From an uncultured Alphaproteobacteria bacterium (GTDB lineage: Bacteria > Electryoneota > RPQS01), in NCBI GenBank assembly GCA_964444755.1, contig CAYUIF010000016.1:5902-69901 (forward strand): a stretch of 64,000 nt of DNA. The letters run 5' to 3'. This document shows positions 8,087-49,905 of the stretch, piece by piece. The notes beneath the pieces were generated by a model. The model was given only the letters and a program-made list of their open reading frames with translations. It ran no database searches and was not told the DNA's origin. The position numbers and the translations under genes were made by a program. The number at the start of each line of letters is the position of its first letter. Position 1 is the stretch's first letter.

Positions 8087-8107
8087 CTGCGGCAATATCG
8101 AAAAATG

Positions 8108-13974: not shown

Positions 13975-13975
13975 C

Positions 13976-22935: not shown

Positions 22936-22999
22936 AGATCATTCCTTCAGTTGCTTGGTTCCGGGGAAAGCTTGAACGTCATCGTAGCAAGTGTTTCAG

Positions 23000-23235
23000 T
23001 TCGCGTGTCATCCTGAGCGAAGCGAAGGATCCCTTACGAGGGTCGGGATTCTTCAGCCTGTTTCCACAGGCTTCAGAATGACACTGATCGCCGTGGCGGG
23101 TCTGTGACCCGACCGGCGAAATTCGGGTCTCCCTCCGCTTCAGCGGGGACACGAAAGGGGGGGAGCGTCCTCGCTCCGCCGGAATCCTTTCGCCGTTGTC
23201 GGTTTCCTGACCGGCAATGGCAGCCAAAACACCCG
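23000..23235. repeat. Mosaic intergenic hairpin-repeat cluster (locus 1)
   Basis: Contains module gtcatcctgagcgaagcgaaggatc and gccgtggcgggtctgtgacccg...gggtctccctccgcttcagcggggacacgaaagggggg units. These recur with ~85-90% identity at 24135, 38410, 40081 and 49440. Confidence 0.75.
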
Positions 23236-23496
23236 CTCCCTATAATACGCCCAAACAGGGAGGATTCTCCAGAATATAACAACGAAATATAAGGATTTGA
23301 CCGATTTTGGGAAAGCTGAATTGTGGATTTTCAGAGGAAAATTTTAGTCGGGGGCAAGATTTCACAGTGATAACACAAATAATATCAGGATTCTTGAAAA
23401 AATCCCCAGAATCAGTGTGAATAATGCTATCGAATGCCTCTCCGAATGCCTCTCTAAGTCATTCTAATCTTTAATGATCAGAAAGTTCAGAATGGC

Positions 23497-24012
23497 TTAT
23501 TCGAGGGTTTCCGCCGCTTCCACATAGAGATTGTAAGTACGACGGTCAAAGCACACAAACACGACTTTTTCGAACGATTCATGGGATTGCAGGAATTCGC
23601 GGGCTTCGCGCAGGGCGATACGGCAGGCCAGTTCCACGGGAAAACCGTAGGCTCCCGTGCTGATGGAGGGGAAGGCGATGGAATGCAGAGAGTATTCAAT
23701 GGCGAGACGGAAGCTGTTGCGGTAGCATTCGGCCAACAATGCGGTTTCGCCGCCATGTCCGCCGTGCCAGATCGGACCGACGGTGTGGATCACGAACTTG
23801 GCAGGCAGCTTGTATCCGGCGGTGATTTTCGCTTGACCGGTGGCGCAGCCGTTTAGCGTGCGGCATTCGTCCAGCAATTCGGGACCGGCCACGCGGTGGA
23901 TCGCGCCGTCCACGCCGCCGCCGCCCAGCAAGCTGTTATTCGCGGCATTTACGATGGCATCTACGGCTTGTTTGGTAATATCGCCTTGGATAATCGTGAT
24001 CCGTGAATCCAT
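23497..24012 (-). CDS. Macro domain protein (O-acetyl-ADP-ribose deacetylase, YmdB-like)
   Basis: [30 protein letters not shown] macro-domain signature. Start reassigned to [13 protein letters not shown] with AAGGAG RBS. Confidence 0.8.
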
Positions 24013-24134
24013 GACTCCTTGTCCGTATTTGATGAGGGTTTCTCCTCCCAAAATAAAATATGAGATCAGAGAGTCAAGTCAACGGTAACGATGAGCGAGA
24101 AACGATGAGCGAAGACAGAGAACCATGCGTTTGA

Positions 24135-24535
24135 TCGCCGCGGCAGGCTCGCAGCCTGCCCGGCTTGCCGCGCACTGCCGCTTGTCATCCTGAACGAAGT
24201 GAAGGATCTCTCTTTCGTCGCCGTGGCGGGTGTGTCACCCGCCCGGCGGAAGGCGGGTCTCCCCCTGCTTTAGCGGGGGGACGGAAGGGGGGAGATAGTC
24301 GCCGAGCAGGATCCCCAGACCCTGCCGGAATCTTGTAGCGCCCAGCTTGCTGGGCTTTTTCACCGAGCGGGGTTTGTCTCCCCCTACTTCAGTGGGGGGA
24401 CAGAAGGGGGGCACATTTCGGCGGGCGGTAGGGGCGGATTGAACGCAGTGGAACCCGCCCGTTCTTGTAGGGGCACCGCGGGCTGTGCCCTTTAGTTACG
24501 TCCGGGTTGCGCTGCGCTTAACCACGGCTCGGCGG
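24135..24535. repeat. Mosaic intergenic hairpin-repeat cluster (locus 2)
   Basis: Series of 25-40 nt palindromic modules (ggcaggctcgcagcctgcc; gtcatcctgaacgaagtgaaggatc; ggcgggtgtgtcacccgcc; gtaggggcggattgaacgcagtggaacccgccc; gtaggggcaccgcgggctgtgccc; ccgggttgcgctgcgcttaaccacggctcggcg) shared with other loci. Confidence 0.8.
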
Positions 24536-24541
24536 AGATTG

Positions 24542-25453
24542 CTATTCGCGGTCCTTGATTTTCTCCAGCAACATATGGCGTATTCGCTGATATTCCTGTG
24601 TGTCATTCAGAGAGTCTCCATATGCCGGAATGGTCTGCACCTTCCCGTACAGTCTGTAACTGGAATCCAATAACTGAATGGCCCGTTCATATTGCCCCAA
24701 CCCATTTGCACCACGCCTCGCGTAGTTAATAACATTGAATGAGATATATCCATGCGCTATAAGCGAATCAGCCAGCTCAAGCGTACGCAAATTGTCTGCG
24801 GATTGCGCTGCTTCCCACAAATAGGACTCGCGGGCTTGTTGTCGGTCCTCCTCGGAACATGGAGCGATCACCGAGATAACCATCGGACGAGGTTCATTGC
24901 CCTTGAGCGAGTTATATCCCGACATTGCAGGGGCGCTGTTGAGGTCTCCCCATTCCGTTCCGCGCCAATGAGCCCAAAAGCACAACCGCTGTCCGGCTAC
25001 TGCCTCGGGCAATGTATACGTAAATCGAATTTGCGGGTTTCGATCCGCTCCACGCGGTTCCTGACCGGTTTTACGCCAACGGTTTTCTCGGGCGCCCTGC
25101 ACCCAGGTATGATAAATCTGCAAATGGAGGAGATCAGGAAGCGCAGGATCCATGAGACAAGTCTCTGACAATGAATCCCAATGACCAATCTCAATTTCCA
25201 GTCCTTGCGGCCATGAAAAGTACTCTCCGCGATAGACGAATTCTTCCGGATTTCTCTTCTTTCGACGTACCTCAAGCACTAATTCTGCCATCGCACCAGT
25301 TACGTAGGTTGGAACATAGTGGTGATCACCCAGTGCGTACTCGGTTTCTCCGCAGTAGAAAATGAGACCTCCTGCTTCCATATGAAAATTCACATCGGCA
25401 GCGCTGGCCCATCCGACGAAGCAGAATACACAGATCCATAAAATAGTTCGCAT
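24542..25453 (-). CDS. Hypothetical secreted protein (signal peptide), lower GC than surroundings
   Basis: 303 aa ORF with N-terminal hydrophobic signal (MRTILWICVFCFVGWASA). No recognisable domain. GC ~50% versus ~60% genome background. Confidence 0.45.
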   Translation of the reverse strand: MRTILWICVFCFVGWASAADVNFHMEAGGLIFYCGETEYALGDHHYVPTYVTGAMAELVLEVRRKKRNPEEFVYRGEYFSWPQGLEIEIGHWDSLSETCLMDPALPDLLHLQIYHTWVQGARENRWRKTGQEPRGADRNPQIRFTYTLPEAVAGQRLCFWAHWRGTEWGDLNSAPAMSGYNSLKGNEPRPMVISVIAPCSEEDRQQARESYLWEAAQSADNLRTLELADSLIAHGYISFNVINYARRGANGLGQYERAIQLLDSSYRLYGKVQTIPAYGDSLNDTQEYQRIRHMLLEKIKDRE

Positions 25454-25479
25454 GAGAATATCCTATAATTGGTTTTTTC

Positions 25480-25585
25480 GTAGGGGCAACGCGACCGTGT
25501 CATATTATTCCGGCCGGGTTGTGCTGGGCTTAACCGCGGCTCGGCAGGGTGGTAGGGGCGGGTCTAAGACCCGCCCGATCGGCCC
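25480..25585. repeat. Mosaic intergenic hairpin-repeat cluster (locus 3, short)
   Basis: gtaggggcaacgcgaccgtg..ccggccgggttgtgctgggcttaaccgcggctcggcagg..gtaggggcgggtctaagacccgcccg. Contains the ccgggttgcgc..cttaacc.cggctcggc module seen at 24455, 40340 (inverted) and 49700. Confidence 0.7.
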
Positions 25586-25595
25586 AAAAAACCTC

Positions 25596-25624
25596 TTGAC
25601 ATTTTGTTCAAATTGTTGTATATT
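25596..25624 (+). promoter_or_regulatory. Canonical sigma70-type promoter (TTGACA-17-TATATT) with no obvious downstream CDS
   Basis: TTGACA at 25596..25601, 17-nt spacer, TATATT at 25619..25624. Downstream 25630..25990 is AT-rich (~38% GC) and lacks a convincing ORF. Confidence 0.45.
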
Positions 25625-25974
25625 ACACACAAATCACGGTCGCCTCAGCACTTACTGTTATCAACAACTCAAGTAATTGTTATTATGCATTCAATGAGTT
25701 ATCCACACATGAGAACCCCATCCAAACCACTCATCATGTTGAGTCCTTTGACGAGTATTTACGGCTTCTCGAATTTCCGAACATCGCTTTTGGCCAACAG
25801 TATCCCGAATCCTAATTTTTCGGAATTTGGGACGGATGGTGCCGCCCAGTTCGTATCACCGGGTGCTTGTGTAGAGCATTCGTCAAATCGTTTGGAGGTT
25901 AGACATTCTAAGAATATAAGAAGAAAAAGAAAGAAGAAATATTATTCGAATAATTTCTTCTATCCCTCGTTTTT

Positions 25975-26012
25975 CGAAGAAAAAAACGGGGCACAGCAAA
26001 CTGCGCCCCGCT
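25975..26012 (-). terminator. Rho-independent terminator of S8 protease gene
   Basis: On minus strand: CGGGGCGCagtttgctGTGCCCCG hairpin followed by TTTTTTT. Confidence 0.7.
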
Positions 26013-26035
26013 CAACTGGCAATGATAAGAAATCG

Positions 26036-29000
26036 CTACTTCACCAGCAGCATCTTTTGCGTAGCCGTGTACCGGGGCGAGACCATGCGGCACAAGTAGA
26101 GTCCCGAAGCCACGCTCCGTCCCGCGTCGTCGGTGCTGTTCCAGAGGAACTGATACCGTCCGGCGGTCATCGTTCCGGAATGCAGCGTGCGCACGAGCCG
26201 CCCCGTAACATCGAACACTTCCAATCGAATATCGGCGGTCTCCGGCACATCGAACCGGATCGCCGTTGTCGGGTTGAACGGATTGGGCTGATTGGGATAC
26301 AGCGCGAATTTATCCGGCAGATTGGACTGACGATCCGTCACCGGCAAATCAATCACCACCGTCAGCGGATCGGAGAAATCCGAATGCCCGAAGCGGTAAA
26401 GCGCGCTCACCGTGTATTCCAGTTCCGTGCTGTCGGGCTGCGGTTCATCCACGAAAAACGTATCGGTGATCATGTCCGCGATGAGAACGCCGTCACGAAA
26501 CACCGCATAGCGAATCGGCTGCGGCGGCGCGAAACTGGCCACCGATTCCGGACGATACCACCGCAGCGTGACCGCGCCTTCATACTGCGACGCGCTGAGA
26601 TCGTGGGGCGGATCGAGCCGCCACGCATGAATATCGAAATCGAGCAGATCGTGTTCCGCCAACGGCATCTGATCGGCCCGCCACATTTCGTAGCCGTCCA
26701 GCACCAGCACTGCACTGACCAGGCCCGCCGCCACCGAATCGTCTACGAAGGTCATGCCTTCCGAGGGAATTACCCGCCCGCCCGCATAGAGAATCGCTTC
26801 ATCGAGATCCGGCGGCATCGGATGCGCATAACACACGGCGGTCAGCAAGCCCACTCCCGTCGGCTGTCCGGTGGTAAAGCGGATCGCGGAACCGCTCGTA
26901 ATCGGCCACGCCGTTTCGGCCAGACTGTCCGAATACAATAACTCGATTCCGGTGGTTTGATTCGGCGACTCGATGCCCATCGTGCAGCGCGATGTGTACG
27001 GCAAATCACCGTAGATGAACAGAATATCGCAATCACCGGTGGCGGTGGGATAGAAGGCCGGATCGAGCAATTGCACTTGCCAGTTCAGCAGCATGCCGCT
27101 GGGAGCAATCAACCGCTGATTGATGAATTCCAGAATCCACCGTCCGTGCTCGCGATCAAACCAGGTGAACTGCTCGGCGCCCAATCCGGTGCGCATGTTG
27201 CCCCAGAACGGCGCAATGATTCCCGAGGGTTCGAACGACGATGGAATGGGCCGGTACTGCGACGCCCCCTCCAGATGGATTCCCGGCAGCATCCAGCCAT
27301 TGGCATTCACCGTCAGCGTATCATCTGCCGCGCCGTAGAACGAAATCGGGAACGGCGTGCGCAGGAATATGGCGGAGTCGGGATGGGGGAACTCAAACGG
27401 TTCACCCGATCCGCCCCAGAGCGGATCAATCTCCGTCCACGTCACGGACCGCGGATCACCGTCATAGCGGTCATAAGCGCGGTAGCCGTAGGCATCCGGC
27501 CCCGTCGGCTCCGCCATCGCCGTATAGAGAATGATCTCCGCCAACGTGGTATCGCCGCTCTGAACCGTGAGCAACGTATCGTCCGTCAAGATCAGCGGCG
27601 GAATCAGATCGGCGGCGTATTGAATCGTCACGGCATATTGCGTCGCGGGAATCGCTTGGACAAATCGCCCGTTGGCGTCCGTCGTCAGCGTATCCAGCGG
27701 CGTGTCTTCAAAGACCACTTTCGCTCCCGGCAAGATCATCCCGCTGTTGAACCGCACCGTGCCCTTGACCACGCCTTGCGGCGCCACGGCCAGCATCGCG
27801 TTCAGCGTAACCGTATCGCTTTCCTCGATCTCGATATCGGGCACAAGATCCGTTTCGTAACCGAACTTGCTGAAGCGGACCGAATACAAACCCTCCTGCA
27901 CGAAGATCGAATAGGCGCCGGATGAATCGGTCGTGCCGGCATAATCTCCCGGAGTCAGCGTAACGTTTGCCCCCGCCAACGGTGAACCGCCGGTTTGGGT
28001 GACAACGCCTTCCAGCCGTCCGGCATTCATCACCATCATCACCGCGTCATAGGCATTCAGAAAACCGAAGCCGTACGAGTTGTCTTCACCCACCGGCAGA
28101 TAGCCGCTGTCAATCGCCGTGGTCATCAACGCTTCCTTGATGGTTTGCGGATCGCAATCCGGGCACGCCTGCCGCATGAGCGCGACCACTCCCGACACGT
28201 GCGGCCCGGCCATGGAGGTTCCGCTCCAGTCGGTTTGTTCGTATCCGCCGCCCGGTACGGACGAGTACACATCCACGCCCGGCGCGCAGATTTCCGGCTT
28301 GATCGCGGTTGGATCCGGCTCGCAGCCTGAAGGTCCGCGCGACGAAAAGCTGGCCAGATTGTAGGGCGGAGTCTGGTCATTGGTGGCGTCCACCGCTCCT
28401 ACCGCAAAAATCTGCCACGCATTCAACTCAAACGTCGCCGGCGACCTCAGCCCCTGCGATCCTTCATTCCCCGCCGACCAGATAATCACCGGACCGGCCG
28501 CTTCGCAATTGGTAATTACCGTGTTCCAGTTGTTGTAGCAGGGCGTGCCCACATGCCATTCCGTTACCCCCCAGGAATTCTGAATCACATCGGGAACGTC
28601 GTCCATCGTATTTTCGTTGCCGTCCGGATCAATCAACCATTGGAAGGCGGTAAAAATATCCTGAATAAAGGGATTGCCCACACCCTGATCGATGGGATTG
28701 GTGGCAATCCACTGGGCATCGGGCGCCGCGCCGACGGTAATCGTGTCGCCATTGACGCGAATCTCCCGCCCGCACATCGTGCCCATGGTATGCGTGCCGT
28801 GATCATTATTGTCCGACGGGAACGTTGAACTGCCGATCAGATCCAGCCAACATTCACTGGCGGGCGCGGTCGTTCCGCGCCACCGCCCGGCTAAGGCCGG
28901 ATGAGTGCCGGAAACCCCGGTATCCACACCGGCAATGAGCACGCCTTCACCCGTAATTCCCAATTCCTCGTTTACCCGCGTCGCTCCGGTTGCGCGTTGG

Positions 29001-29503
29001 CCGGGAGTCCTGGTGTGAGTATCCAGCGTATAGTTGGATTCTCGTCCTTCCGAGTCATAAGGCACCGGTTCGATCAGCTCCGCCTTAAAATTCGGACCGA
29101 TGGATTCCACCGCCGGATTTTCGGCCAACTCAATAACTGCCTTGGCGTTACCGTAGACGACCACCAGATTTTCAATCCAGTAGGCCGTATGACCTTCGAT
29201 AAATCCTTGTTTTTCAAGATCGTTAATTTGTGCGATAACCGGCCCCTGAGTCTCGGCAGCATTGGCGCGCAGGGCTTGAACCACTTGGCGGTGTCGCTCC
29301 GCCAGCGATGCTCGCTGAAGATGGAGTATTTGATCTAAAGCACGGATATCACGCGGATTGTGGAGTTTAATGATCGCGCTAAAGCGGGCGGTGTCAGCCG
29401 CTTGATTAAGCTGCACCAAAAACGCGGGATCGAATTCCGCACCGATGGCGGCAATCGTTGTGATTAGGCAAGCCAAAATGGCGGTTCGGACGCTGGATTT
29501 CAA
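26036..29503 (-). CDS. Subtilisin-like S8 serine protease with large C-terminal beta-sandwich extension and T9SS C-terminal sorting domain
   Basis: Catalytic triad motifs AGVDTGV / HGTHTMGTM / GTSMAGPHVSG. C-terminal YPNQPNPFNPTTAIRF...QKMLLVK. Likely TTG start at 29503 (GAGGAG RBS) giving signal peptide MKSSVRTAILACLITTIAAIGA. The ATG 27 nt upstream (29530) is the ORF-track start. Confidence 0.85.
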   Translation of the reverse strand: MKSSVRTAILACLITTIAAIGAEFDPAFLVQLNQAADTARFSAIIKLHNPRDIRALDQILHLQRASLAERHRQVVQALRANAAETQGPVIAQINDLEKQGFIEGHTAYWIENLVVVYGNAKAVIELAENPAVESIGPNFKAELIEPVPYDSEGRESNYTLDTHTRTPGQRATGATRVNEELGITGEGVLIAGVDTGVSGTHPALAGRWRGTTAPASECWLDLIGSSTFPSDNNDHGTHTMGTMCGREIRVNGDTITVGAAPDAQWIATNPIDQGVGNPFIQDIFTAFQWLIDPDGNENTMDDVPDVIQNSWGVTEWHVGTPCYNNWNTVITNCEAAGPVIIWSAGNEGSQGLRSPATFELNAWQIFAVGAVDATNDQTPPYNLASFSSRGPSGCEPDPTAIKPEICAPGVDVYSSVPGGGYEQTDWSGTSMAGPHVSGVVALMRQACPDCDPQTIKEALMTTAIDSGYLPVGEDNSYGFGFLNAYDAVMMVMNAGRLEGVVTQTGGSPLAGANVTLTPGDYAGTTDSSGAYSIFVQEGLYSVRFSKFGYETDLVPDIEIEESDTVTLNAMLAVAPQGVVKGTVRFNSGMILPGAKVVFEDTPLDTLTTDANGRFVQAIPATQYAVTIQYAADLIPPLILTDDTLLTVQSGDTTLAEIILYTAMAEPTGPDAYGYRAYDRYDGDPRSVTWTEIDPLWGGSGEPFEFPHPDSAIFLRTPFPISFYGAADDTLTVNANGWMLPGIHLEGASQYRPIPSSFEPSGIIAPFWGNMRTGLGAEQFTWFDREHGRWILEFINQRLIAPSGMLLNWQVQLLDPAFYPTATGDCDILFIYGDLPYTSRCTMGIESPNQTTGIELLYSDSLAETAWPITSGSAIRFTTGQPTGVGLLTAVCYAHPMPPDLDEAILYAGGRVIPSEGMTFVDDSVAAGLVSAVLVLDGYEMWRADQMPLAEHDLLDFDIHAWRLDPPHDLSASQYEGAVTLRWYRPESVASFAPPQPIRYAVFRDGVLIADMITDTFFVDEPQPDSTELEYTVSALYRFGHSDFSDPLTVVIDLPVTDRQSNLPDKFALYPNQPNPFNPTTAIRFDVPETADIRLEVFDVTGRLVRTLHSGTMTAGRYQFLWNSTDDAGRSVASGLYLCRMVSPRYTATQKMLLVK

Positions 29504-40077: not shown

Positions 40078-40080
40078 TCT

Positions 40081-40430
40081 CGTAGGGGCGCACCCGTGTG
40101 TGCGCCCGTTCTTGTAGGGCCATAATTCATTATGGCCGTATTCTGGTAGGGGCGGGTTGAACACCGTGGAACCCGCCCGTATATTTCCGCCTGCTTCAGC
40201 GGGGGGACGGAAGGGCGGTCGTAGGGGCACAGCGTGCTGTGCCCATCTTCGCCGAGGCAGATCCCTGATCTGCCCGGAATCTGCCGCACGATCGCGCCGA
40301 GGCACCCGTCCTCGGGTGCCCGGAACATACACAATCTCGCCGAGCCGTGGTTAAGCGCAGCGCAACCCGGCCGGAATGTTTTACGAGCGTGTCATTCTGG
40401 ACACCGCGTCAGCGGGCGTCCAGAATCCCA
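40081..40430. repeat. Mosaic intergenic hairpin-repeat cluster (locus 5)
   Basis: Consecutive gtaggggc-palindrome units: gtaggggcgcacccgtgtgtgcgccc; gtagggccataattcattatggcc; gtaggggcgggttgaacaccgtggaacccgccc; gtaggggcacagcgtgctgtgccc. Followed by cgccgag-hairpin-cccggaat units and an inverted copy of the ccgggttgcgctgcgcttaaccacggctcggcg module. Confidence 0.85.
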
Positions 40431-40541
40431 AACATAACAAGCGAATCTTCACTCGTTCATCTCTTATCACTCTCCGCCTCTGCCATCTTGGCAACCGCCG
40501 AATTATCAATGTCTGAAAAAAAGCGAATGCACTTGATTATT

Positions 40542-41808: not shown

Positions 41809-41826
41809 ATCGCTTATCGTTCATCG

Positions 41827-43305
41827 CTACTTCAGCAGCATCATCTTCTGCACCTGCCGCACCTTGCCCGCCTGCAAGACAGCAAAGTACATTCCCGAAC
41901 TGAATCGCGCGGCATCCCACTGCACGTGGAATTCTCCGGCCGGACGTACGCCATCTATCAGCACCGCCGCTTCGCGGCCCGTCACATCGAAGACTCGCAG
42001 CGAAACGTGCATGGTTCGATCCAACTCGAACCGAATCTGCGTGCTCGCATTGAACGGATTAGGATAATTCCCCTTCAAGCGCAACTCCGCCGGATACGCC
42101 GTATGCAATTCTTCAATCGCGGACGGGCGGGCGGGCAAGACCAAGCCGGGATCGCCCAGCAGCATGCAGGAGAGCGATGTTTGCCGCGTGGGGCTAAAGG
42201 CATCAGATCCCCACGGATATGTACGAATAAACTCTCGCTGTCCGAATAACCATAAATCACCGAGGGTATACGTCGAATCGGCAAAGGCAATCGAGAACAT
42301 CGCTCGGCGGAAAGTAATCCCGGTAAATGCCCATGAGATATTCGTATTAGCAAAGTACCCGATGGCGCCGCCGTTCGGATTATACAGCAAAGCTAATGCG
42401 ATTCCGCCCATATCCAAGCGCGGCGCGGAAGCCATATCGTAACAGGTATGCAACTGAATCGTATAGCGTGGATTATTGGTCAAATCCGAAAAGAAGCCGG
42501 AATCCGCAAGACTTGAACCGGACCATACCCCAGCGCCGCCATGCCCCGAATAAACGGATATAAAACTGCCGCTGTTATAGTTGGCGTGAATTTCGTCCTG
42601 GTCTCCATGCCACGGATTTCCCGCCGGCAAACCCAAATAATCTCGTTCGATTAAATACGTTGACGGCACCAACTCCGCCAGTGGCTCTGAAAAATCGTTC
42701 CCGAAGTGAAACATCGTATCGTCATAATCGGCGATCAAGTGAATGCGCCGTTGCCAGTCGCCCTCGGTAGACGATTCGTACTGCTGACATTTCTGATAAT
42801 AATTTGGTAGTGCGGTTTCCCATGTCGGACTCCACGGTAATCGTCCAATACTAAGTATCAGGGACGGCGGAAGCGCCGTCGAGTCCGGATGCCACGCATA
42901 GAACACATCCGAAAAATAACTGTAAACGATCCATTGATCACTGACATACTGCGAGTCCACTTCGATATGACTCGGCACGACATCATGAAACCCGATAATG
43001 AACACGTCGCGCAACTGCGGCAATGCCCAGTGCTCCCGCGCATAATGAAAAAACTCCTTCAGTACCGTATCCGAAGGAGTTCCGTTTCCGAATTCGTTCC
43101 AAATGTCATCCGTGGCCACCACCATCGCGGTACGGCCATGGCTCTGCCGCCAAGCGGCCAAATCGCTAATCCACGGCGTGCTCGCGATCAGCGAGTCGGT
43201 GGTGACGATCAGATAATCGGCGGAGTTGGCCGGATCGTGCAGATCCGCATAAACTCCCGCCGCCGACAGCAGAATGGCCGTCAGCAGAAAAAGGCTGGTT
43301 CGCAT
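41827..43305 (-). CDS. Gingipain-like (peptidase C25 family) cysteine peptidase candidate with T9SS C-terminal sorting domain
   Basis: Signal peptide, SGHGG (candidate catalytic His) and HTCYDMA (candidate Cys) motifs in C25-like arrangement. C-terminal YPNPFNASTQIRF...QKMMLLK. Confidence 0.5.
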   Translation of the reverse strand: MRTSLFLLTAILLSAAGVYADLHDPANSADYLIVTTDSLIASTPWISDLAAWRQSHGRTAMVVATDDIWNEFGNGTPSDTVLKEFFHYAREHWALPQLRDVFIIGFHDVVPSHIEVDSQYVSDQWIVYSYFSDVFYAWHPDSTALPPSLILSIGRLPWSPTWETALPNYYQKCQQYESSTEGDWQRRIHLIADYDDTMFHFGNDFSEPLAELVPSTYLIERDYLGLPAGNPWHGDQDEIHANYNSGSFISVYSGHGGAGVWSGSSLADSGFFSDLTNNPRYTIQLHTCYDMASAPRLDMGGIALALLYNPNGGAIGYFANTNISWAFTGITFRRAMFSIAFADSTYTLGDLWLFGQREFIRTYPWGSDAFSPTRQTSLSCMLLGDPGLVLPARPSAIEELHTAYPAELRLKGNYPNPFNASTQIRFELDRTMHVSLRVFDVTGREAAVLIDGVRPAGEFHVQWDAARFSSGMYFAVLQAGKVRQVQKMMLLK

Positions 43306-43541
43306 AGGTTCCTCAAGGTTTGAAATCGTTCAAAACAGATATAGACCGATTCAAGCTTCAGGCAGCCTATCAAGTCTGTCGGGTTGCCTCCCAATCGTTG
43401 AATCTATCCGCCGCAAACGAAAAACCGTTAGCGAAACCTACAGCGATACCTCCGATTTTCTTAAACTAAATATACAACCGAATCCCTGCCTTGTCAAGTT
43501 ATTCCATAAAATCAAATTATTTAGGACAAGACAGTCCAGTC

Positions 43542-43913
43542 TCATTGCACGATCATCGTTCCCACGGTCTTTTCCGCCCCAATCACCATCGGAAACGTCC
43601 CCCGCTGGGTCGGATTGATCTTGATAATTGTCGCATTCAAAGCCGGTAATAGCTCATAGATTTCCAGTTCCTGAATTTCGAATAATTCCTCGCGCGGTTC
43701 GGAATCGTAGCGCGCAATGACCAATTGAACCGGTTGATTTACCTGAAGAACTACTTCCTTGGGAGTCAGTTCTCCGCCGGACAACCGCAAATCAAAGCGA
43801 TTTGATGCACCGGTCTGATCAGAATCCTTTCGTTTCTTTCGAAAAAACAGAAAGATCAACAGACCCATCACGGCTACCACTTCGATTAGCAATATCCATG
43901 GATTTTCAATCAT
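43542..43913 (-). CDS. Membrane-anchored cupredoxin-like domain protein lacking copper ligands
   Basis: N-terminal TM helix plus Lys/Arg stop-transfer. C-terminal beta-sandwich pattern resembling Cupredoxin_1/EfeO-N domains but with no His/Cys/Met ligand set. Confidence 0.35.
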   Translation of the reverse strand: MIENPWILLIEVVAVMGLLIFLFFRKKRKDSDQTGASNRFDLRLSGGELTPKEVVLQVNQPVQLVIARYDSEPREELFEIQELEIYELLPALNATIIKINPTQRGTFPMVIGAEKTVGTMIVQ

Positions 43914-44165
43914 TTACGCCCTCGTGCATGAGCGACCCATTCGCCATCGAAAAGCAATCCTTTACTGTACAATATGTCATATTTGGTCAGTTTGCATCGC
44001 AATATCACCGATATTCATTGACTCGAATGAAAAAATTCATTACCTTTACACAAACGGGAACTTTTGTCACCCGTGTGGGTAAGAAAGAATGCAGCCAGTG
44101 AGAAATGGTACAAAATGCTCGCAAGGGCGAGCGGGGAATTAATTCAGCGAAAGGATGATGAAACA

Positions 44166-44426
44166 ATGGTGATTCTCAACATCCAACAGGCTGCGAAGTT
44201 CTTGGGAAAGACTCCAGCCGCTCTTCGGAACGGCTATAAGCGGTGGGGCGTGCCTCATTTTCGGCTTGGCGGTCAGATCAAGTTCACGCAAGAAGCCTTA
44301 CAGGAATGGGTCGAGAAAAGCATGGTCGAAACGGAAATGACCGAATCGGCCAAGCCGAAGCCGGTCTCCCCGACCGACGGTCGTCGCGGCAAGCGAGTCC
44401 AGACCAAGGCAACTTCGCGGCCTTAG
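44166..44426 (+). CDS. Excisionase-family helix-turn-helix DNA-binding protein (HTH_17-like)
   Basis: Start at MVILNIQQAAKFLG. Motif AAKFLGKTPAALRNGYKRWGVPHFRLGGQIKFTQEAL typical of Xis/AlpA-like HTH. Basic C-terminal tail. Confidence 0.5.
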   Translation: MVILNIQQAAKFLGKTPAALRNGYKRWGVPHFRLGGQIKFTQEALQEWVEKSMVETEMTESAKPKPVSPTDGRRGKRVQTKATSRP

Positions 44427-44459
44427 CAGGAATACGATAAAACGATTCCGGCGCAAGTT

Positions 44460-44504
44460 AAAACGGGTGTTCCGTCCCTGCGGAGCACCCGCTTCGTTTT
44501 CATT
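44460..44504. terminator. Bidirectional Rho-independent terminator
   Basis: CGGGTGTTCCGtccctgCGGAGCACCCG followed by cttcgttttcatt. A-tract upstream serves the minus-strand cupin gene. Confidence 0.6.
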
Positions 44505-44516
44505 GACTGTCCGAAT

Positions 44517-44879
44517 CTAAGTGAGGACGGTTTCATCCTCCGCTCGCCAGGCCGGATCCACGATGCACAGGAAAACCAGCTCGCCCGGTCCGACCGCGAG
44601 AATCCGCTGCCGCGCCTGCGGCGGAATATAGACGGCATCGCCCGCCTGCACATCGCGCTGTTCGCCGTTGATCTCAACGCGACCCGTTCCGCTCAGGATA
44701 TAGTAGACTTCACTGGTGGATAGGATATGCAAATCCGACCACTGTCCGACCGGCAGCCGCGCATGGGCCAGACTGTAGCGATGAGCCACCGGATCCTTGT
44801 CGGGATTCAGGAGTTCGCGCAGAATCGTGTGATCCCCGGCGATGAATTCCCGACAGTCTTTCAAGGACTTAATCAGCAT
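44517..44879 (-). CDS. Cupin domain protein
   Basis: Start at MLIKSLKDCREF avoiding overlap with VOC gene. Cupin motifs (HARLPVGQWSDLHI...GDAVYIPPQARQRI). Confidence 0.6.
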   Translation of the reverse strand: MLIKSLKDCREFIAGDHTILRELLNPDKDPVAHRYSLAHARLPVGQWSDLHILSTSEVYYILSGTGRVEINGEQRDVQAGDAVYIPPQARQRILAVGPGELVFLCIVDPAWRAEDETVLT

Positions 44880-44889
44880 GTGCCGGCGA

Positions 44890-45243
44890 TCAGGATTTGG
44901 TCCAAATCCCGATGGAGTAGCCGTCCGGACTTTGCACGATAGCATAATGGCCGAAACCTTCGGGAAGCTCGGTTTTAAGCCGCATCACGCGACCGCCTAA
45001 CCGCTCCGCCTTCGCCAGAGTAATCTCGATATCCTCCACTTCCACGTAGTTGTGGAAGCCGCTGATTTCGGGCATCTCGCGAATCTTGCTCAGCCCGCCG
45101 ATATACTCGTCTTCGGCGGTGCTGATGAGCAGATAATCATCACCGAACAGCTTGCTGAGTTTCCAGTTGAATAAGGGTGCATAGAAGGTTACGGCTTTTT
45201 CCATATCCGTAACCGGAATTTCGACATGGGCGAAGGTGAACAT
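44890..45243 (-). CDS. VOC family protein (glyoxalase/bleomycin resistance/dioxygenase fold)
   Basis: 117 aa. HVEIPVTDMEKAVTFY...GGRVM...GFGHYAIVQSPDG pattern. Confidence 0.7.
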   Translation of the reverse strand: MFTFAHVEIPVTDMEKAVTFYAPLFNWKLSKLFGDDYLLISTAEDEYIGGLSKIREMPEISGFHNYVEVEDIEITLAKAERLGGRVMRLKTELPEGFGHYAIVQSPDGYSIGIWTKS

Positions 45244-45442
45244 TGAACGGCTCCCGTGCGATGGATTCGCTTGGTGTAATTACTTATAATTGATATGATA
45301 AGGGCAGGTCCCCACCCCTTGTGCTTTACGGTAGTGGTTTTAGGGCACAATGTCAAGCCAAGTGAAGGCTGCCGATGAATCGGGAACCCCCGACCTATAG
45401 TTAACGTATGCAAGAGGACATTTCCCATCAGGATGGAGCATC

Positions 45443-46075
45443 ATGATTAGACTGAAATCGCAACTTCGTAAGCTGTGGTTGCCGTCAGCCGCCGTATTAT
45501 TAGCATTGGCTGCAATCGGTGCGGGCGATCCGCAGGCGGCGGGATTGGTGGTCGGTTCGCCGATGCCGCCGTTTTCCCTGAAGAATATTGACGGTTCGAT
45601 GGTGGCTGCGGACGGCTTTACAGGCAAACAGGCGGTGGTGGTGATCTTTTCGTGCAATCACTGTCCGTTCGTGCAAGCCTATGAAAGCCGGATGATCGCG
45701 CTGGCCAACGAGTACCAGCCCAAGGGTGTTCAGTTTGTGCTGATCAATCCCAATGATCCGAAGAAAGTGCCGGAAGACAGCTACGAGAAAATGCAGGCGC
45801 GGGCGGCGGAAAAAGCCTATCCGTTCCCGTACCTGTTGGACGATACGCAGAAAATCGCCAAGACCTACGGAGCGGCGCGCACGCCCGAAGTGTTCGTATT
45901 CGGACCCGACCGCAAGCTGGTGTACTGGGGACGGATTGACGATAGCTCCGAAGCAGCGCAGGTGAAAAAGCACGATTTGAAGAATGCGCTGGAGATGGTG
46001 CTGGCGGGAACTCCCGGTAAGATTGACGAGCCGATCACCAAAGCCTTCGGCTGTACGATCAAGTGGAAAGAGTAA
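45443..46075 (+). CDS. Secreted thioredoxin-fold thiol-disulfide oxidoreductase (CxxC)
   Basis: Signal peptide, FSCNHCPFV CxxC motif, TPEVFVF thioredoxin cis-Pro loop region. Confidence 0.75.
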   Translation: MIRLKSQLRKLWLPSAAVLLALAAIGAGDPQAAGLVVGSPMPPFSLKNIDGSMVAADGFTGKQAVVVIFSCNHCPFVQAYESRMIALANEYQPKGVQFVLINPNDPKKVPEDSYEKMQARAAEKAYPFPYLLDDTQKIAKTYGAARTPEVFVFGPDRKLVYWGRIDDSSEAAQVKKHDLKNALEMVLAGTPGKIDEPITKAFGCTIKWKE

Positions 46076-46089
46076 TCCCATTGTGAAGA

Positions 46090-46155
46090 ACGGCCACAAT
46101 GGATTGTGGCCCTACAAGATAAGGGCGGCTTGAAAAAGCCGCCCTGTTTCATATC
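46090..46155. terminator. Paired terminator hairpins between convergent genes
   Basis: GGCCACAATggaTTGTGGCC and GGGCGGCTTgaaaaAAGCCGCCC with short T-tracts. Confidence 0.45.
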
Positions 46156-46181
46156 CGTTAATATTTTTCCCTGCTTGGAAT

Positions 46182-47468
46182 CTACTTCATCAACACAATC
46201 TTCCGTGTCGCCCGAAACTCTCCGCTTTCCATCCGCACGAAATACACTCCGCTCGGCAGATCGCGCGCGTCAAACGTAAGCTTATAGTCTCCCGCGCCGC
46301 GCTTCTTATCCTCAAGAGTCTGAATCCATCTACCGTTCACATCATATACCGCCACATTTACTCTACCCGCTTCGATTAGTGTAAACGAAATTGTGGTAGT
46401 TGGGTTGAACGGATTGGGATAGACCGACAGCGAATACGATGTCGGAGTCGCTATCGGATCAACGACCGCCGCCGAGACGATCCGATCACGGTGCTCGGAG
46501 CGATGACCGCTCATGTCTACGTCGGCAAGGAAATACCAGTAGGTTTGACCGGGGTTAACATCAGTGTCGGTGTATTCATAGCGCTGCATGGTGGCCGAGT
46601 TACCCTGTGACGGTAATATTATGATCCGTGCGAATTCCCCGTTCTCCTGTTCCCCGCGCAGAATCTCGAAATGGTCGTTGTCGGTTTCGGAAGCCGTAGC
46701 GAAGGAAAGACGAATATCGTTTTCAGCGGGAACTGCAGTGAAGGATAAGAGCTCGACAGGAAGTGGAACATCGGAACAAATCCATTGAGGATTGCTGATT
46801 AGAGTACCGTGATTTCCATTGGGCGAAGCGTCATGGAGAATGTCACCATCTCCTTCGTCGAAGTGGTAAAGTACCTCTGTATACGAATCACTCTCAAAAG
46901 GAATTCGTGGCGGCAGGAAATCAGCCGCATATCTCGCAATGGATGACACTCTAAACTCATCAAGGCAACCTTCCCAAAAATGAGGACTTCCACTGACAAT
47001 TCCGCATGCAAGGCGGTGAGATCCTGGATCTGCCGCCCAGCTTATTACTCCATTGGTCGTCTCTGACGAAGCCAAATCGCCATCAACGAAAAGTCGAATA
47101 CTGGACCCTTCCATACATACCGCGACGTGATGCCACGTATTTAGAGTAATAGTTGGCCATCCTGCTCCGTAGTAGCCACCAGAATAGGCGTACCTAAAAG
47201 ATACACACCCGTTGCTCGCATTGAAATTTGCTTCTTGCCAATAGGCAGTCTTCCCCCACATATTGCAACCATATTCTTGTGTCGGATCCCACATTTTCAT
47301 AAAGCACTCAATTGTAAATGAGGACGTGGTCCCGCCGTCGAAGAACGGTGAGGAAACAGCAACGTAGTCGTCTGCACCATCAAATTGTAGCGCATAGCCA
47401 CCTGGGCATTGAGCGAAAGCACAAGCCGCAACAGCGGCCAGCCAAAACAAACCGAGCAATTTCTTCAT
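46182..47468 (-). CDS. LamG/concanavalin A-like lectin domain protein with T9SS C-terminal sorting domain
   Basis: Signal peptide, laminin-G-like jelly-roll region (LQFDGADDYVAVSSP... WHHVAVCMEGSSIRLFVDG). C-terminal YPNPFNPTTTISF...RKIVLMK. Confidence 0.7.
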   Translation of the reverse strand: MKKLLGLFWLAAVAACAFAQCPGGYALQFDGADDYVAVSSPFFDGGTTSSFTIECFMKMWDPTQEYGCNMWGKTAYWQEANFNASNGCVSFRYAYSGGYYGAGWPTITLNTWHHVAVCMEGSSIRLFVDGDLASSETTNGVISWAADPGSHRLACGIVSGSPHFWEGCLDEFRVSSIARYAADFLPPRIPFESDSYTEVLYHFDEGDGDILHDASPNGNHGTLISNPQWICSDVPLPVELLSFTAVPAENDIRLSFATASETDNDHFEILRGEQENGEFARIIILPSQGNSATMQRYEYTDTDVNPGQTYWYFLADVDMSGHRSEHRDRIVSAAVVDPIATPTSYSLSVYPNPFNPTTTISFTLIEAGRVNVAVYDVNGRWIQTLEDKKRGAGDYKLTFDARDLPSGVYFVRMESGEFRATRKIVLMK

Positions 47469-47584
47469 TGTAACTCCTTTAGAGTTAAATGTCGATTGAA
47501 CGTGAATTATATGTAATATATTGGGGGGGGGTAAAAAGCAAGTTTATATTCGAAAAATGTACAAATTCACAATATGGACCCACT

Positions 47585-47612
47585 TGACTTTTTATGGGCA
47601 TATGCTTATATT
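47585..47612 (+). promoter_or_regulatory. Candidate sigma70 promoter (TTGACT-16-TATATT)
   Basis: In AT-rich divergent intergenic region upstream of DUF134 gene. Confidence 0.4.
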
Positions 47613-47636
47613 ATGTATGTCAAATTATTAGATCTA

Positions 47637-48149
47637 ATGCCAAGACCACAATGCCATCGGCGGATTCAGGGGCAGCCCGGATGCCGCCGCTTCAAACCCG
47701 ATTCACCGTCTAACCAGCCGGTACTGGAAGTCGGGCTGACCTTGGATGAGTTCGAAGCCATCCGGCTGGCGGACTTGGAAGGGAAAGCCCACCAATCCGG
47801 CGGCGAAGAGATGGATGTGTCGCGGCAGACCTTCGGCCGCATTTTGGAAACCGCGCGCCGGAAGGTGGCTGAGGCATTAGTGGAAGGCAAAGCGATTCGT
47901 ATCGAAGGAGGAAATATCACCATGAACGATCAACGTACATTCGTCTGCAGCCATTGCCAGCATCGCTGGCAAGTTCCGTGCGGAACGCCGCGTCCGAATC
48001 AGTGTCCGGAATGTCAGAGTACCAACGTTCACCGCGCTCCTGAAGAGCGCGGCCATGAAGTCTGCCGCGGTCGCGGAATGGGGAGAATGGGGCAAGGCGG
48101 CGGCGGCGGCGGACGCGGGCGGGGTTGTCAGCGCGGACATAATCGCTGA
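47637..48149 (+). CDS. DUF134 (UPF0251) DNA-binding-like protein fused to C-terminal zinc-ribbon and Gly/Arg-rich tail
   Basis: Start at MPRPQCHRR. DUF134 core (GLTLDEFEAIRLADLEG...MDVSRQTFGRILETARRKVAEALVEGKAIRIEGG). CSHC...CPEC zinc-ribbon. RGRGMGRMGQGGGGGGRGRG tail. Confidence 0.55.
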   Translation: MPRPQCHRRIQGQPGCRRFKPDSPSNQPVLEVGLTLDEFEAIRLADLEGKAHQSGGEEMDVSRQTFGRILETARRKVAEALVEGKAIRIEGGNITMNDQRTFVCSHCQHRWQVPCGTPRPNQCPECQSTNVHRAPEERGHEVCRGRGMGRMGQGGGGGGRGRGCQRGHNR

Positions 48150-48300
48150 TATCTATTCCATCCCGATTGGTCTGCGACAGTATACGGCAGCGAACAGGCT
48201 GCCGTATGCTTTTTTAAAAGACAGGGGGATTCAGTTTCTTGACTCCATGGGCAATCTTTCGCTATATTGCGCTATTCGTTCCACAAAACCCAATCCGATC

Positions 48301-49350
48301 ATGCGCGTGCCGCTGGCTCTACTGCTCTCCTTGTCGCTTGTATTTTCAGCCTTTGCCAATCCCAACAACTTAGGTCAGTCCGGCGCTCCCGGACTGCAAG
48401 CCTGTGCCGCTTCCTGCCATGGCTCGGGAGCGGGGTCGGTAACCGTGACAGGCTTTCCCAGCATTTATATGCCCTATGATACCTATCTGCTCACGGTGCA
48501 GAAACTGAGCGGATTCAGTATTAAAAATTTTCATTCATCCATTCGTATCGGGTGGGGCACGCGGATGGCAGGCACGTTAGCGCCCGGCTTTAATACCGCA
48601 CTTTATAGTGTGCCTTCGGAAAGCAGCGGCGTGCATTTGGCGACGCTGGATCACGATTCCGCGACCTTCTACTGGACGGCTCCGGGACCGGTAGGACCGG
48701 TCAGCTTATATTTGGCGGCGCATCAGGGACCGCGCAACGAGGGACCGAACACAACGATTGTCCTGATTTCGAATATGGCTTATCCCGATACGGCACGGAA
48801 TCCGCGCCCGCAGAACGGTTCACAGGATGTGCTTACCACTGCCAATTTGTATTGGTCACCGGGGGTGGGATCAGAAACCCACGACGTGTATTTCGGAACC
48901 GATCCCAATCCGCCGTTCATCGGCAATCAAACCGATTCGATTTTCGATCCGCCCGGCGAGATGGAGTATGCCACAACGTATTATTGGAAAGTGGACGAGC
49001 GCAACAACGCGGGAATGGCGCCCGGTCCGGTGTGGAGTTTCTTCACGCATATTTTGGCGGCGGATGATTGGCCCGCCGGAGTGCCGCGCGAATTGGCATT
49101 AGGTCCGGCGTATCCTAATCCGTTCAATGCTACGCTTTCCATTCCGTTTGCGCTGCCCAAAGCGGCGGAAGTGCGGCTGGAATTGTTCGATATTACGGGA
49201 CGGCAGCGAGCGGTACTGGCCGAGGGAATGTATACCGCCGGAACGCATCGCGTGCAGTGGAATGCGGAAGCGGTGGGCAGCGGTGTGTATTTGGTGCGGC
49301 TAATTGCGGGAGATCGCAGCGTGACCACGAAGGTCGTAGCGATGAAGTAG
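48301..49350 (+). CDS. Secreted hypothetical protein with CxxxCH motif, Ig/Fn3-like middle domain and T9SS C-terminal sorting domain
   Basis: Start at MRVPLALLLSLSLVFSAFA (signal peptide). QACAASCHGSG motif. DVYFGTDPNPP...YYWKVDE...GPVWSFFT beta-sandwich signature. C-terminal YPNPFNATLSIPF...KVVAMK. Confidence 0.6.
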   Translation: MRVPLALLLSLSLVFSAFANPNNLGQSGAPGLQACAASCHGSGAGSVTVTGFPSIYMPYDTYLLTVQKLSGFSIKNFHSSIRIGWGTRMAGTLAPGFNTALYSVPSESSGVHLATLDHDSATFYWTAPGPVGPVSLYLAAHQGPRNEGPNTTIVLISNMAYPDTARNPRPQNGSQDVLTTANLYWSPGVGSETHDVYFGTDPNPPFIGNQTDSIFDPPGEMEYATTYYWKVDERNNAGMAPGPVWSFFTHILAADDWPAGVPRELALGPAYPNPFNATLSIPFALPKAAEVRLELFDITGRQRAVLAEGMYTAGTHRVQWNAEAVGSGVYLVRLIAGDRSVTTKVVAMK

Positions 49351-49407
49351 CGAGATGTTTTCGCGCGGGGTAAGGACACCCCGCGCGGCGATCAGTGTTG
49401 ATATACG

Positions 49408-49436
49408 AAAGGCGCACCGTGGTGCGCCTTTTTGTT
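49408..49436 (+). terminator. Rho-independent terminator
   Basis: GGCGCACCgtGGTGCGCC followed by TTTTTGTT. Preceded by a second GC hairpin CGCGCGGGGtaaggacaCCCCGCGCG. Confidence 0.65.
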
Positions 49437-49439
49437 GGC

Positions 49440-49905
49440 TGAAGACGGGCGCGATAAATCGGCCCCTACGAGTTGTTGCGGTTCCGGCCGGGTCTGGGGA
49501 CCCTGCTCGGCGGAATGCCGGTTTCCCCCCGTTCACAGGGGGACGAAAGGGGGTGATCAATGTTCAATCCCTTCCGGGCAGATCAGGGATCTGCCTCGGC
49601 GAAGAGAAAGGGCACAGCACGCTGTGCCCCTACGAACGATCCATCGTGGTTATCCCGGCGATAATACCGCACTGCCGTGCGCGGCTACGGTCCGTCGCAT
49701 TCCGGCCGGGTTGCGCTTCGCTTAACCACGGCTCGGCGGGATCACTTACGTTCCGGGCACCCGCGGACGGGTGCCTCGGCGAGTGTTTTGCGTGAAGATT
49801 CCGGCGGAGCGAGGACGCTCCGCTCGGCGAAGAGAACGGGCACGGCACGCTGTGCCCCTACAGAACAAAACGGGCGGGTACGCTTGCGCTTTACCCGCCC
49901 CTACA
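49440..49905. repeat. Mosaic intergenic hairpin-repeat cluster (locus 6, largest)
   Basis: Internal direct duplication ggcgaagagaa[a/c]gggcac[a/g]gcacgctgtgcccctac (49588 and 49828). Three ccggg-hairpin-ctcggcgag units with different stems. cggcggaatgccggtttccccccgttcacagggggacgaaaggggg and ccgggttgcgcttcgcttaaccacggctcggcg modules shared with loci 1, 2, 3 and 5. Confidence 0.85.

Follow-up and report, generated by a model that had tools for sequence, protein, structure and literature searches.

Mosaic arrays of probable REP-type hairpin elements in intergenic regions of an uncultured Calditrichota chromosome

What are the clusters of short palindromes that fill six intergenic gaps in a chromosome stretch from an uncultured bacterium, and do they move the genes that stand between them? 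The stretch analysed here, hereafter the window, comprises 64,000 nucleotides of contig CAYUIF010000016.1 (positions 5,902 to 69,901), from an organism that we place in the Calditrichota. An earlier note had described the clusters as mosaics of hairpin modules that often bracket single genes, and had suggested that they mark insertion or recombination hot spots or mobilizable cassettes. In view of their anatomy, folding, covariation and turnover between strains, the spread of two of their classes beyond the lineage and the association of one of these with Ssn nuclease homologues elsewhere, we consider it likely that the six loci are mosaic arrays of small non-coding hairpin elements of the repetitive extragenic palindromic (REP) type. 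As such they would be comparable to the bacterial interspersed mosaic elements (BIMEs) of E. coli and the Neisseria intergenic mosaic elements (NIMEs).

Direct reading of the loci, repeat finding and a regular-expression census of the window agree that the six exist where they had been reported and share modules. All are intergenic and built from 25-45 nt GC-rich hairpin units that recur between loci on either strand. We sorted the units into classes A to I, and at least seven hairpin families occupy the same intergenic sites. Array 1 (22995-23235) runs A+, A-, E, D, truncated C and I between the stop of a macro gene and the start of an E1-alpha gene. Array 2 (24135-24541) abuts the stop of a gene for a 303-aa protein and reads hairpin, A+, linker, E, D, C-, GTAG-like hairpin, D, B+, B+, long C+. 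Array 3 (25480-25585) holds a degenerate B+, a long C+ and a B+, and array 4 (38410-38565) an A+, a linker, F, E and a conserved hairpin. Array 5 (40078-40432) begins 4 nt past the stop of an aldehyde dehydrogenase (ALDH) gene and runs B+, B+, B+, D, B+, C-, C-, long C-, A+. Array 6 (49355-49905) lies between convergent genes and reads F, a canonical terminator, B-, C+, D, C+, B-, H, long C+, C+, C+, B-, B-. Smaller sites that the earlier note had missed lie at 33156-33191, 34334-34360, 46091-46115 and 49362-49387. The arrays total about 1.8 kb, with a G+C content of 0.57-0.67 against 0.558 for the window. Their modules are contiguous, mostly in tandem orientation and irregularly spaced, which agrees with the earlier view that they are not CRISPR.

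Every module type listed in the earlier note recurs. The gtcatyctga..gaagratc module has five copies plus one with a changed tag at 33156, tctctttcgtcgc has two, ggcgggtgtgtcacccgcc three, and the gggtctccc..gggggac unit five. The 33-nt ccgggttgcgct..ggctcggcg unit is present four times, once inverted; GTAGGG(G/C)C with its palindrome is present 13 times; and cgccgag-stem-ccggaa has seven intact short copies and one truncated. Such numbers far exceed expectation, with 11 copies of GTAGGGGC against 0.99 expected (none of 100 shuffles reached 11) and seven of the class C frame TTCCGG-N17/18-CTCGGC against 0.05. The class H linker aside, each module folds as a single-stranded hairpin, most with DNA z-scores of -2.6 to -5.5, and the folding and the class C covariation described below both uphold the description of the modules as non-coding hairpins. 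Weak z-scores (+0.2 to -1.8) were given by two short class A copies, the class A copy at 38417, one class D copy and long class C. The low class A values may arise because tandem G.A pairs earn little in the DNA energy model. Classes A, B and C follow one design, a constant foot with a variable top, to which A and B add a constant unpaired tag. Because all three pair a constant foot with a variable stem, the inference of constant flanks with different stems, and of selection at the level of structure, was correct.

How the arrays change can be read from relatives. The ALDH protein is 97% identical to one from the Calditrichota metagenome-assembled genome GCA_049322395.1, whose contig L002, from a sister strain, is collinear with 30.5-50 kb of the window at about 95-96% nucleotide identity in genes. 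At four sites whole modules have been gained, lost, swapped or tandemly duplicated relative to L002. Between two nitroreductase genes, L002 has about 150 nt of modules (long C, C and I) that the window lacks; a class G hairpin is all that the window has at this place. Upstream of ALDH the reverse holds: only the window has the A-linker-F-E block, and at that spot L002 has an unrelated hairpin of 9 bp. Array 5 differs by one extra class A copy, which follows it in L002, and is elsewhere about as well conserved as the genes; array 6 is rearranged in L002, where a four-module block is tandemly duplicated. Such differences of whole modules from a sister strain about 96% identical mean that turnover in the arrays is fast; because the same two modules stand in opposite order at different sites, single modules, and not only blocks, are units of change.

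The modules also recur elsewhere, both at another locus of a close relative and on more distant Calditrichota contigs. The close relative's metagenome contig, L001, bears one array of 600 nt, built from the same modules and placed between two convergent genes, with a second array upstream of it. Among the more distant contigs, L232 is rich in copies of classes A, C and D whose inner stems differ, and L003 has copies of A, B and C. In the 13845-15955 region of L232, class D and class A modules cluster about 700 nt away from a gene for a reverse transcriptase (RVT_1, 415 aa). The long class C pattern matched nothing in the genome collection and one contig, L001, in the metagenome collection, and so the source lineage is barely represented in these collections. 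An exact match to the ALDH of the window was not among the recorded sequences. A chimeric translation of the arrays, used as a protein query for other arrays, gave no significant match.

Class C consists of TTCCGG, a 7-bp stem, an NGGR loop and C(T)CGGCG with a bulged T. On the minus strand a truncated copy is fused to class D at 23162-23186, and intact short copies lie at 24300-24330, 40250-40279 and 40295-40325; the last is identical over its 31 nt to a copy in L232, whose ALDH is only 72% identical. The intact short copies on the plus strand lie in array 6 (49482-49512, 49572-49601, 49751-49781 and 49799-49829). The long variant, of which there are four copies, stands at 24496-24535 (with inner CCGGGTTGCGCTGCGCTTAACCACGG), 25508-25547 and 49700-49739 on the plus strand and at 40338-40377 on the minus strand. 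We aligned thirteen distinct copies from the window, L001, L002 and L003. The four outer pairs (CCGG with C-T-CGG, the T bulged) are invariant. All seven inner pairs show double compensatory changes, and 97.9% of cells are paired. The covariation score was 0.709 against 0.205 in shuffles (none of 500 reached it) and fell to 0.08-0.13 when the partners were slid. Mismatches are few in this alignment, too few for an asymmetry between G.T and A.C to distinguish selection on RNA from selection on DNA. Among the sequences fetched, class C was found only in Calditrichota relatives, with 13 true hairpins in 152 kb of Calditrichota sequence and none in 2.83 Mb of other DNA. A reading of the long variant as an integron attC site (GCTTAAC / GTTGCGC) was rejected, as the element is too short, has no integrase and occurs in mixed orientations.

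Class B is GTAG-GG(G/C)C followed by a palindrome. Its copies are 24-35 nt long, with perfect 7-9 bp stems of at least seven distinct self-complementary sequences, and in all 13 the GTAG is unpaired directly before the stem. Plus-strand copies lie at 24428-24461 (stem GGGCGGATT/AACCCGCCC), 24467-24491, 25480-25505 (degenerate), 25552-25577 (a perfect 9-bp stem), 40082-40108 (stem GGGCGCAC, with an identical copy in L001), 40114-40138 (AT-rich stem GGCCATAA), 40146-40179 and 40221-40245 (stem GGGCACAG). On the minus strand they lie at 49446-49469, 49609-49633, 49837-49861 and 49871-49904, and an isolated copy at 46091-46115 stands beside a canonical terminator, near a gene that is non-homologous in L002. 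The class fits the definition of GTAG-tagged REPs, which are associated with RAYT (REP-associated tyrosine) transposases, in its tag, in its stem-loop (20-40 bp with a 6-13 bp stem by definition) and in its compensatory sub-families (Di Nocera 2013, PMC3733652). Further copies occur in L001, L002, L003 and L230, and GTAGGGGCGGGTT..AACCCGCCC is found in 105 IMG/VR contigs. In the phage-like contigs L025, L055 and L015 a GTAG-tagged REP-like hairpin (GTAGGGGCGGGTTT.AAACCCGCCC) occupies nearly every intergenic gap, and L015 interleaves two hairpin families as dimers. We found no description in the literature of REP-type elements populating phage genomes.

Class A is TGTC-AT(Y)CTGA, an inner mini-hairpin, and GAAG(R)AT-C. 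At 23007-23031 (plus) and 23046-23082 (minus, with a longer inner stem-loop) two copies form a head-to-head dimer; the others in the window are singletons. The copy at 24184-24208 (plus) has inner AC-GAA-GT where that at 23007 has GC-GAA-GC, a compensatory change, and the copy at 38417-38452 (plus) has a 7-bp inner stem. A variant at 40391-40428 (plus) replaces the tandem G.A pairs by Watson-Crick pairs, giving a 9-bp outer stem and a DNA fold of -13.1 kcal/mol (z -5.5). The class A-like copy with the changed tag ATCAT, at 33156-33191 (plus), lies 10 nt past a gene stop and is kept in L002. The core of the short copies (23016-23026 in the window) is GCGAAGC, kept in altered form as ACGAAGT at 24184; the GCGAAGC heptamer forms an exceptionally stable DNA mini-hairpin. 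A hammerhead-like reading of the class (CUGA..GAAG) was rejected on a misfit of the core and the silence of Rfam.

In all five window copies the tag and stem read TGTC-AT...AT-C, so that the stem opens with AT, closes with AT and is followed by C. Among 223 copies in 120 genome contigs, T or C precedes GTC in 91%, and the dimers in those contigs are head-to-head in 49 cases, tail-to-tail in seven and head-to-tail in three. Class A thereby has the features of CGTC/TGTC-tagged REPs: a (C/T)GTC tag, AT/AT stem ends, a C after the palindrome and a predominance of head-to-head pairs. In the published description of CGTC-tagged REPs, the tag is frequently TGTC, the stem begins with AT, the tail is short and most dimers are head-to-head (Di Nocera 2013, PMC3733652).

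Beyond the window, a 25-nt search pattern for class A, GTCATYCTGARCGNAGYGAAGRATC, with seven degenerate positions, matched at least 120 GTDB genome contigs (L233-L352) from at least 15 phyla, including chromosome-level metagenome-assembled genomes and an isolate. Among these phyla are bacteria of the Candidate Phyla Radiation (CPR), Chloroflexota, Acidobacteriota, Nitrospirota, Bacteroidota, Bacillota, Planctomycetota, Verrucomicrobiota and Omnitrophota. The pattern also matched at least 120 IMG/VR viral contigs (L110-L229), and class A and B copies in viral contigs usually sit in short gaps between phage genes. Near-identical class A copies over such phylogenetic distance suggest horizontal spread. 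The sole recurrent family among open reading frames beside class A copies is a GIY-YIG protein (PF01541) of about 93 aa, and the solved structures nearest to it are those of UPF0213 proteins. The 120 contigs contain four such genes, none of them more than 62 nt from class A copies. Likewise, four of four homologues picked by protein sequence alone have an inverted class A copy within 25 nt downstream, three of them with upstream copies as well. Nine more homologue loci, on PLSDB isolate records, include Planktothrix and Spirosoma with class-A-type hairpins and five proteobacterial loci with canonical CGTC hairpins; the Novosphingobium locus has a GTCGC-tagged variant, and at the Photobacterium locus the hairpin lies only 200 nt downstream. 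Overall, a hairpin stands within about 60 nt at 16 of the 17 GIY-YIG homologue loci examined. Hairpins of exactly the class A type stand within 60 nt of the gene at eight loci (L234, L259, L354, L357, L358, L359, L362 and L363), from CPR bacteria, Bacteroidota, Chloroflexota, Cyanobacteria and Desulfobacterota; the proteobacterial loci are L364, L366, L367, L369 and L370. A reciprocal Ssn search of the viral contigs gave one partial match only.

The link between GIY-YIG protein and hairpin is already published: the Ssn family (cd10448) comprises site-specific single-strand DNA nucleases that bind the NTS hairpin repeat (oriented dRS3), or related motifs termed SRM, and cut a few nucleotides upstream (Chenal 2025, PMC11893778). 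The evidence for binding and cutting of one strand of single-stranded DNA comes from the Neisseria and Wolbachia enzymes only, the NTS-ssnA-NTS layout was noted as insertion-sequence-like, and NTS-gene-NTS DNA transforms Neisseria less well (PMC11893778). On L369 (Azospirillum lipoferum 4B plasmid AZO_p3, 255212-256078), sufB and sufC are separated by an ssn-type GIY-YIG gene that is flanked on each side by head-to-head dimers of CGTC hairpins; the arrangement looks like an insertion into an operon. Many GIY-YIG homologues (P0121-P0240) are on contigs no longer than about 1.5 kb, which is what one would expect of a unit that breaks assemblies, and at least 14 called homologue proteins read into the downstream hairpin, acquiring artefactual tails such as DSSLRSE, APSLRSG or ILRFAQDD.

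The remaining classes are less numerous. Class D, a C-run/G-run hairpin followed by a second G-run, has five copies, all on the plus strand (23125-23162, 24255-24293, 24374-24412, 40181-40218 and 49517-49553). Class E (GCCGTGGCGGGT.TGT.ACCCG.CCGGC) has three, likewise on the plus strand, at 23088-23118, 24218-24248 (DNA fold -17.4 kcal/mol, z -5.4) and 38503-38531. Two class F palindromes (CGCGCGGGG..CCCCGCGCG) lie at 38463-38488 and at 49362-49387, the latter with a related copy in L001. Classes G, H and I have one or two copies each: the class G hairpin (GGCGGCACG..CGTGCCCCGC) at 34334-34360 (plus), between the two nitroreductase genes; the class H non-hairpin linker (..GCACTGCCGTGCGCGGCTAC..) at 49656-49690 (plus), found also in L001; and the class I hairpin at 23192-23222 (plus), with a second copy in the L002-specific insertion. 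Outside the lineage, in the other fetched DNA, classes D to G are near-absent. Immediately upstream of the ALDH promoter region, at 38539-38560, lies a further hairpin that may have a function of its own instead of being a repeat. It is kept in L002 (about 8070-8095), where the upper stem and loop read GCGGCAGCC..GGTTGCCGC, with a G.T pair, instead of GCGGCAGT..ACTGCCGC.

How might such arrays arise? In the model that we propose, the elements would be non-autonomous, each a passenger that relies on an enzyme from another part of the genome. Class B fits the GTAG-tagged REP superfamily, whose members in other bacteria are thought to be moved by tyrosine (HUH) transposases of the RAYT type that work on hairpins of single-stranded DNA. 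Class A fits the CGTC/TGTC-tagged superfamily, that of the Ssn-related motifs that flank GIY-YIG Ssn nucleases and are bound and cut by them as single-stranded DNA. Classes C to I are lineage-specific hairpins whose constant foot and variable inner stem are the design expected of a substrate read by a protein. Class A would then be served by an Ssn-type nuclease, class B by a RAYT and C to I by other enzymes, all encoded outside the window and active on hairpins that extrude from single-stranded DNA when the genome is replicated or DNA has been taken up. Insertions would be tolerated in a few long intergenic gaps, where copies would recombine and duplicate locally, and the arrays would grow and shrink by insertion or deletion of single modules, local tandem duplication and recombination between copies. 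We infer that the cognate enzymes exist in this genome and move these copies. It is tempting to go further and see the arrays as shared landing pads for several independent pairs of hairpin and single-strand-DNA nuclease, with class A a pan-bacterial, phage-carried SRM subtype whose ssn-hairpin units have frequently passed between phyla, and with C and D to G each the substrate of a Calditrichota enzyme. We offer that extension tentatively and think it rather doubtful as a whole.

Several observations weigh against a REP-type origin with cognate enzymes. Neither the window nor about 88 kb of sequence from relatives yielded a gene for a RAYT, an Ssn or any other nuclease or transposase. A tblastn search for RAYT and IS200 likewise found no match in the window or any fetched locus, although this test, with YafM and IS200 queries, is weak. 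Head-to-tail REP dimers are reported to be rare, head-to-head and tail-to-tail being usual (Di Nocera 2013, PMC3733652), and class B here is mostly head-to-tail (40082-40245 all plus, 49837-49904 both minus). Classes C to I have no known tag and no known partner. Further, the near-identity of class A across phyla fits poorly with vertically inherited, domesticated REP systems, and the published SRM search sequence, HGTCWYN(0-2)YYVSBRHN(0-5)WNVSBRGN(0-2)RNCYNB, matched neither the class A copies of the window nor any class-A-type ssn locus. The same sequence matches four of the five proteobacterial control loci; because it finds controls but no class-A-type locus, class A appears to be an SRM subtype outside the published pattern.

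The other explanations begin with the genes between the arrays. Three of these (macro, 303-aa and ALDH) are bracketed on both sides, as the earlier note had it, with P ~0.009-0.015 under random placement of six clusters; because random placement makes such bracketing unlikely, the array sites are spatially clustered. Could the arrays be boundaries of mobilizable single-gene cassettes, integron-like or other, that hold these three genes? Beyond a bracketing in excess of chance (P ~0.01), base composition offers some ground for this. The G+C content at third codon positions (GC3) is atypical in the 303-aa gene (24542-25453; 0.51) and in the gene at 46182-47468 (0.50), against about 0.62-0.74 in neighbours, and both genes adjoin modules. 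The latter lies beside a class B copy and is swapped for a non-homologous gene in L002: the segment that holds it (46157-47573) has no nucleotide match there, and L002 codes a 480-aa secreted protein in its place. The 303-aa gene may be a recent acquisition at an array site, and some array sites may be places where foreign genes land. ALDH and macro, on the other hand, have GC3 values typical of the window (0.73 and 0.67). The sister strain lacks the array upstream of ALDH and still has the gene. In L003 and L004, with ALDH 73% identical, a gene for a 1013-aa protein adjoins ALDH across gaps of 118 and 84 nt that contain no modules. In L230 and L232 (70% and 72% identical) ALDH lies a few genes from a nitroreductase gene with no adjacent arrays, and in the window, too, a nitroreductase gene stands a few genes upstream. 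Because this neighbourhood is kept in distant relatives that lack adjacent arrays, ALDH is not a cassette. The flanked genes also stand on both strands, the window has no integrase or recombinase, and the arrays are heterogeneous multi-module stretches rather than single recombination sites. A cassette origin for the three genes is thus very improbable. The genes between the arrays are ordinary residents, as tested for ALDH; of the earlier proposal, the hot spots stand as hot spots of module change, evident against L002, and the mobilizable cassette falls for ALDH.

Nor do we favour a function in RNA. Hairpins kept as terminators, stabilisers of mRNA 3' ends, modulators of translation or small RNAs, with repetition reflecting convergent or copied regulatory elements, would account for the stability of the hairpins and for the position of most arrays downstream of gene stops; the tandem G.A pairs and GAA loop of class A are RNA-stable motifs, and many REPs have been argued to be transcribed (Di Nocera 2013, PMC3733652). 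Yet the modules lack the T-run that follows a GC-rich hairpin in an intrinsic terminator, and canonical hairpin-plus-T-run terminators stand separately from them at 8108, 33241, 41777, 46122 and 49408, the last (49408-49436) adjoining array 6 modules. We found no consistent rule for module orientation relative to transcription: the same class occurs both ways, and class B lies in the sense orientation in array 5 but in the antisense orientation in arrays 2 and 3. Between strains 96% identical, arrays appear and disappear, no Rfam family matched the modules at the gathering threshold or at E<=1, and the characterised partner of class-A-like hairpins acts on single-stranded DNA, not RNA. A role at the RNA level is disfavoured on these grounds, and we judge it unlikely. 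Slightly more unlikely is that the host selects the arrays as barriers to, or modulators of, recombination around particular genes, as proposed for Neisseria NTS-gene-NTS, where incoming single-stranded DNA that bears the repeats is cut by SsnA. The five class A copies at four sites do bracket exactly two genes, macro and ALDH, the bracketing is non-random, and transformation assays in Neisseria are published; however, the A-ALDH-A configuration is absent from the sister strain, most array modules are not class A, and no ssn gene was found in the window or the Calditrichota fragments. Chance, low-complexity GC-rich sequence or an assembly artefact, for which only the high G+C of the arrays speaks, can be given practically no credence in the face of the shuffle controls, the class C covariation and the same modules in independent NCBI, JGI and Logan assemblies.

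The setting of the arrays is unremarkable. The gene content of the window is ordinary, with alternative complex III, a cbb3 oxidase, a 2-oxoacid dehydrogenase complex, many type IX secretion substrates, chemotaxis genes and sigma/TonB genes. Pfam searches of the 64 kb found no transposase, integrase, recombinase, Y1 transposase or GIY-YIG gene; a GIY-YIG gene was likewise lacking in the Calditrichota fragments examined, and no tRNA gene was found in the window. A separate set of repeats (..AATCCGTTCAA..) at 5810-5854, 7822-7866, 26265-26303 and 42035-42087 is coding DNA, with more of the same kind at 46396-46425, 49086-49130, 51792-51814 and 57038-57060. These lie mostly at or near the C-terminal sorting domains (Por_Secre_tail) of type IX substrates and have no kinship to the hairpin modules.

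We see moderate interest in three points: a new phylum, a private covarying hairpin family, and a widespread subtype of Ssn motif that the published pattern misses. REP-type mosaic arrays would be extended to Calditrichota, a phylum almost unstudied genetically, where two superfamilies known mostly from Proteobacteria coexist with private hairpin families in the same intergenic sites. Because the published motif misses a very widespread subtype, surveys undercount Ssn-related hairpins. In practical terms, the arrays yield spurious open reading frames and break assemblies. Class C offers a clean protein-readable foot with a free inner stem and, if its enzyme is found, could provide a new site-specific tool for single-strand DNA, such as the work on Ssn seeks. 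The view of gene mobility in the region is unchanged, the flanked ALDH gene being resident.

How, then, do these arrays compare with known systems? An integron cassette array with attC sites is not what the window holds: there is no recombinase, the flanked genes lie on both strands and the ALDH neighbourhood is kept. The subterminal hairpins of the IS200/IS605 family, served by the Y1 HUH transposase TnpA, resemble class C in their constant foot, extrahelical T and conserved flanking bases, and IS608 TnpA reads the hairpin foot and features of the extrahelical T type on single-stranded DNA. This is an analogy only, since no Y1 transposase is linked to class C and no pair of left and right ends surrounds a gene. 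GTAG-tagged REPs and their RAYT, BIMEs and Pseudomonas REP clusters (Di Nocera 2013, PMC3733652; Nunvar 2010; Bertels and Rainey 2011) share with class B an unpaired GTAG before a GC-rich 7-9 bp stem, a short loop, compensatory sub-families, an intergenic and clustered distribution, and several families per genome. They differ in that here no RAYT was found in the window, copies stand mostly head-to-tail, the arrays combine no fewer than seven unrelated hairpin families, and many phage contigs carry GTAGGGGCGGGTT-type copies that are very similar. Known arrays, too, join their REPs by fixed linkers, and Calditrichota are not among the reported phyla. E. coli BIMEs set REPs in regularly alternating orientation, with a few fixed linker motifs between them, whereas the arrays here are mostly tandem, of mixed families and irregularly spaced. 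The GTAG-23 REPs of Thermomicrobium roseum (Di Nocera 2013) differ in stems and phylum.

On the side of class A, Neisseria NIMEs consist of 50-150 bp units, each flanked by dRS3 inverted repeats, whereas modules in our arrays abut one another and class A is a minority, with five of about 45 modules. The SRM (NTS/dRS3) system of SsnA differs in that the class A stem has tandem G.A pairs and a variable inner mini-hairpin, and in that no ssn gene lies in the window. It is alike in the tag, the AT/AT stem, the trailing C, the head-to-head dimers and the clustering around genes, and the class A sequence type flanks ssn homologues in other phyla. Two of the classes belong to known superfamilies, and the six loci are an unusually rich but ordinary case of bacterial mosaic repeat clusters.

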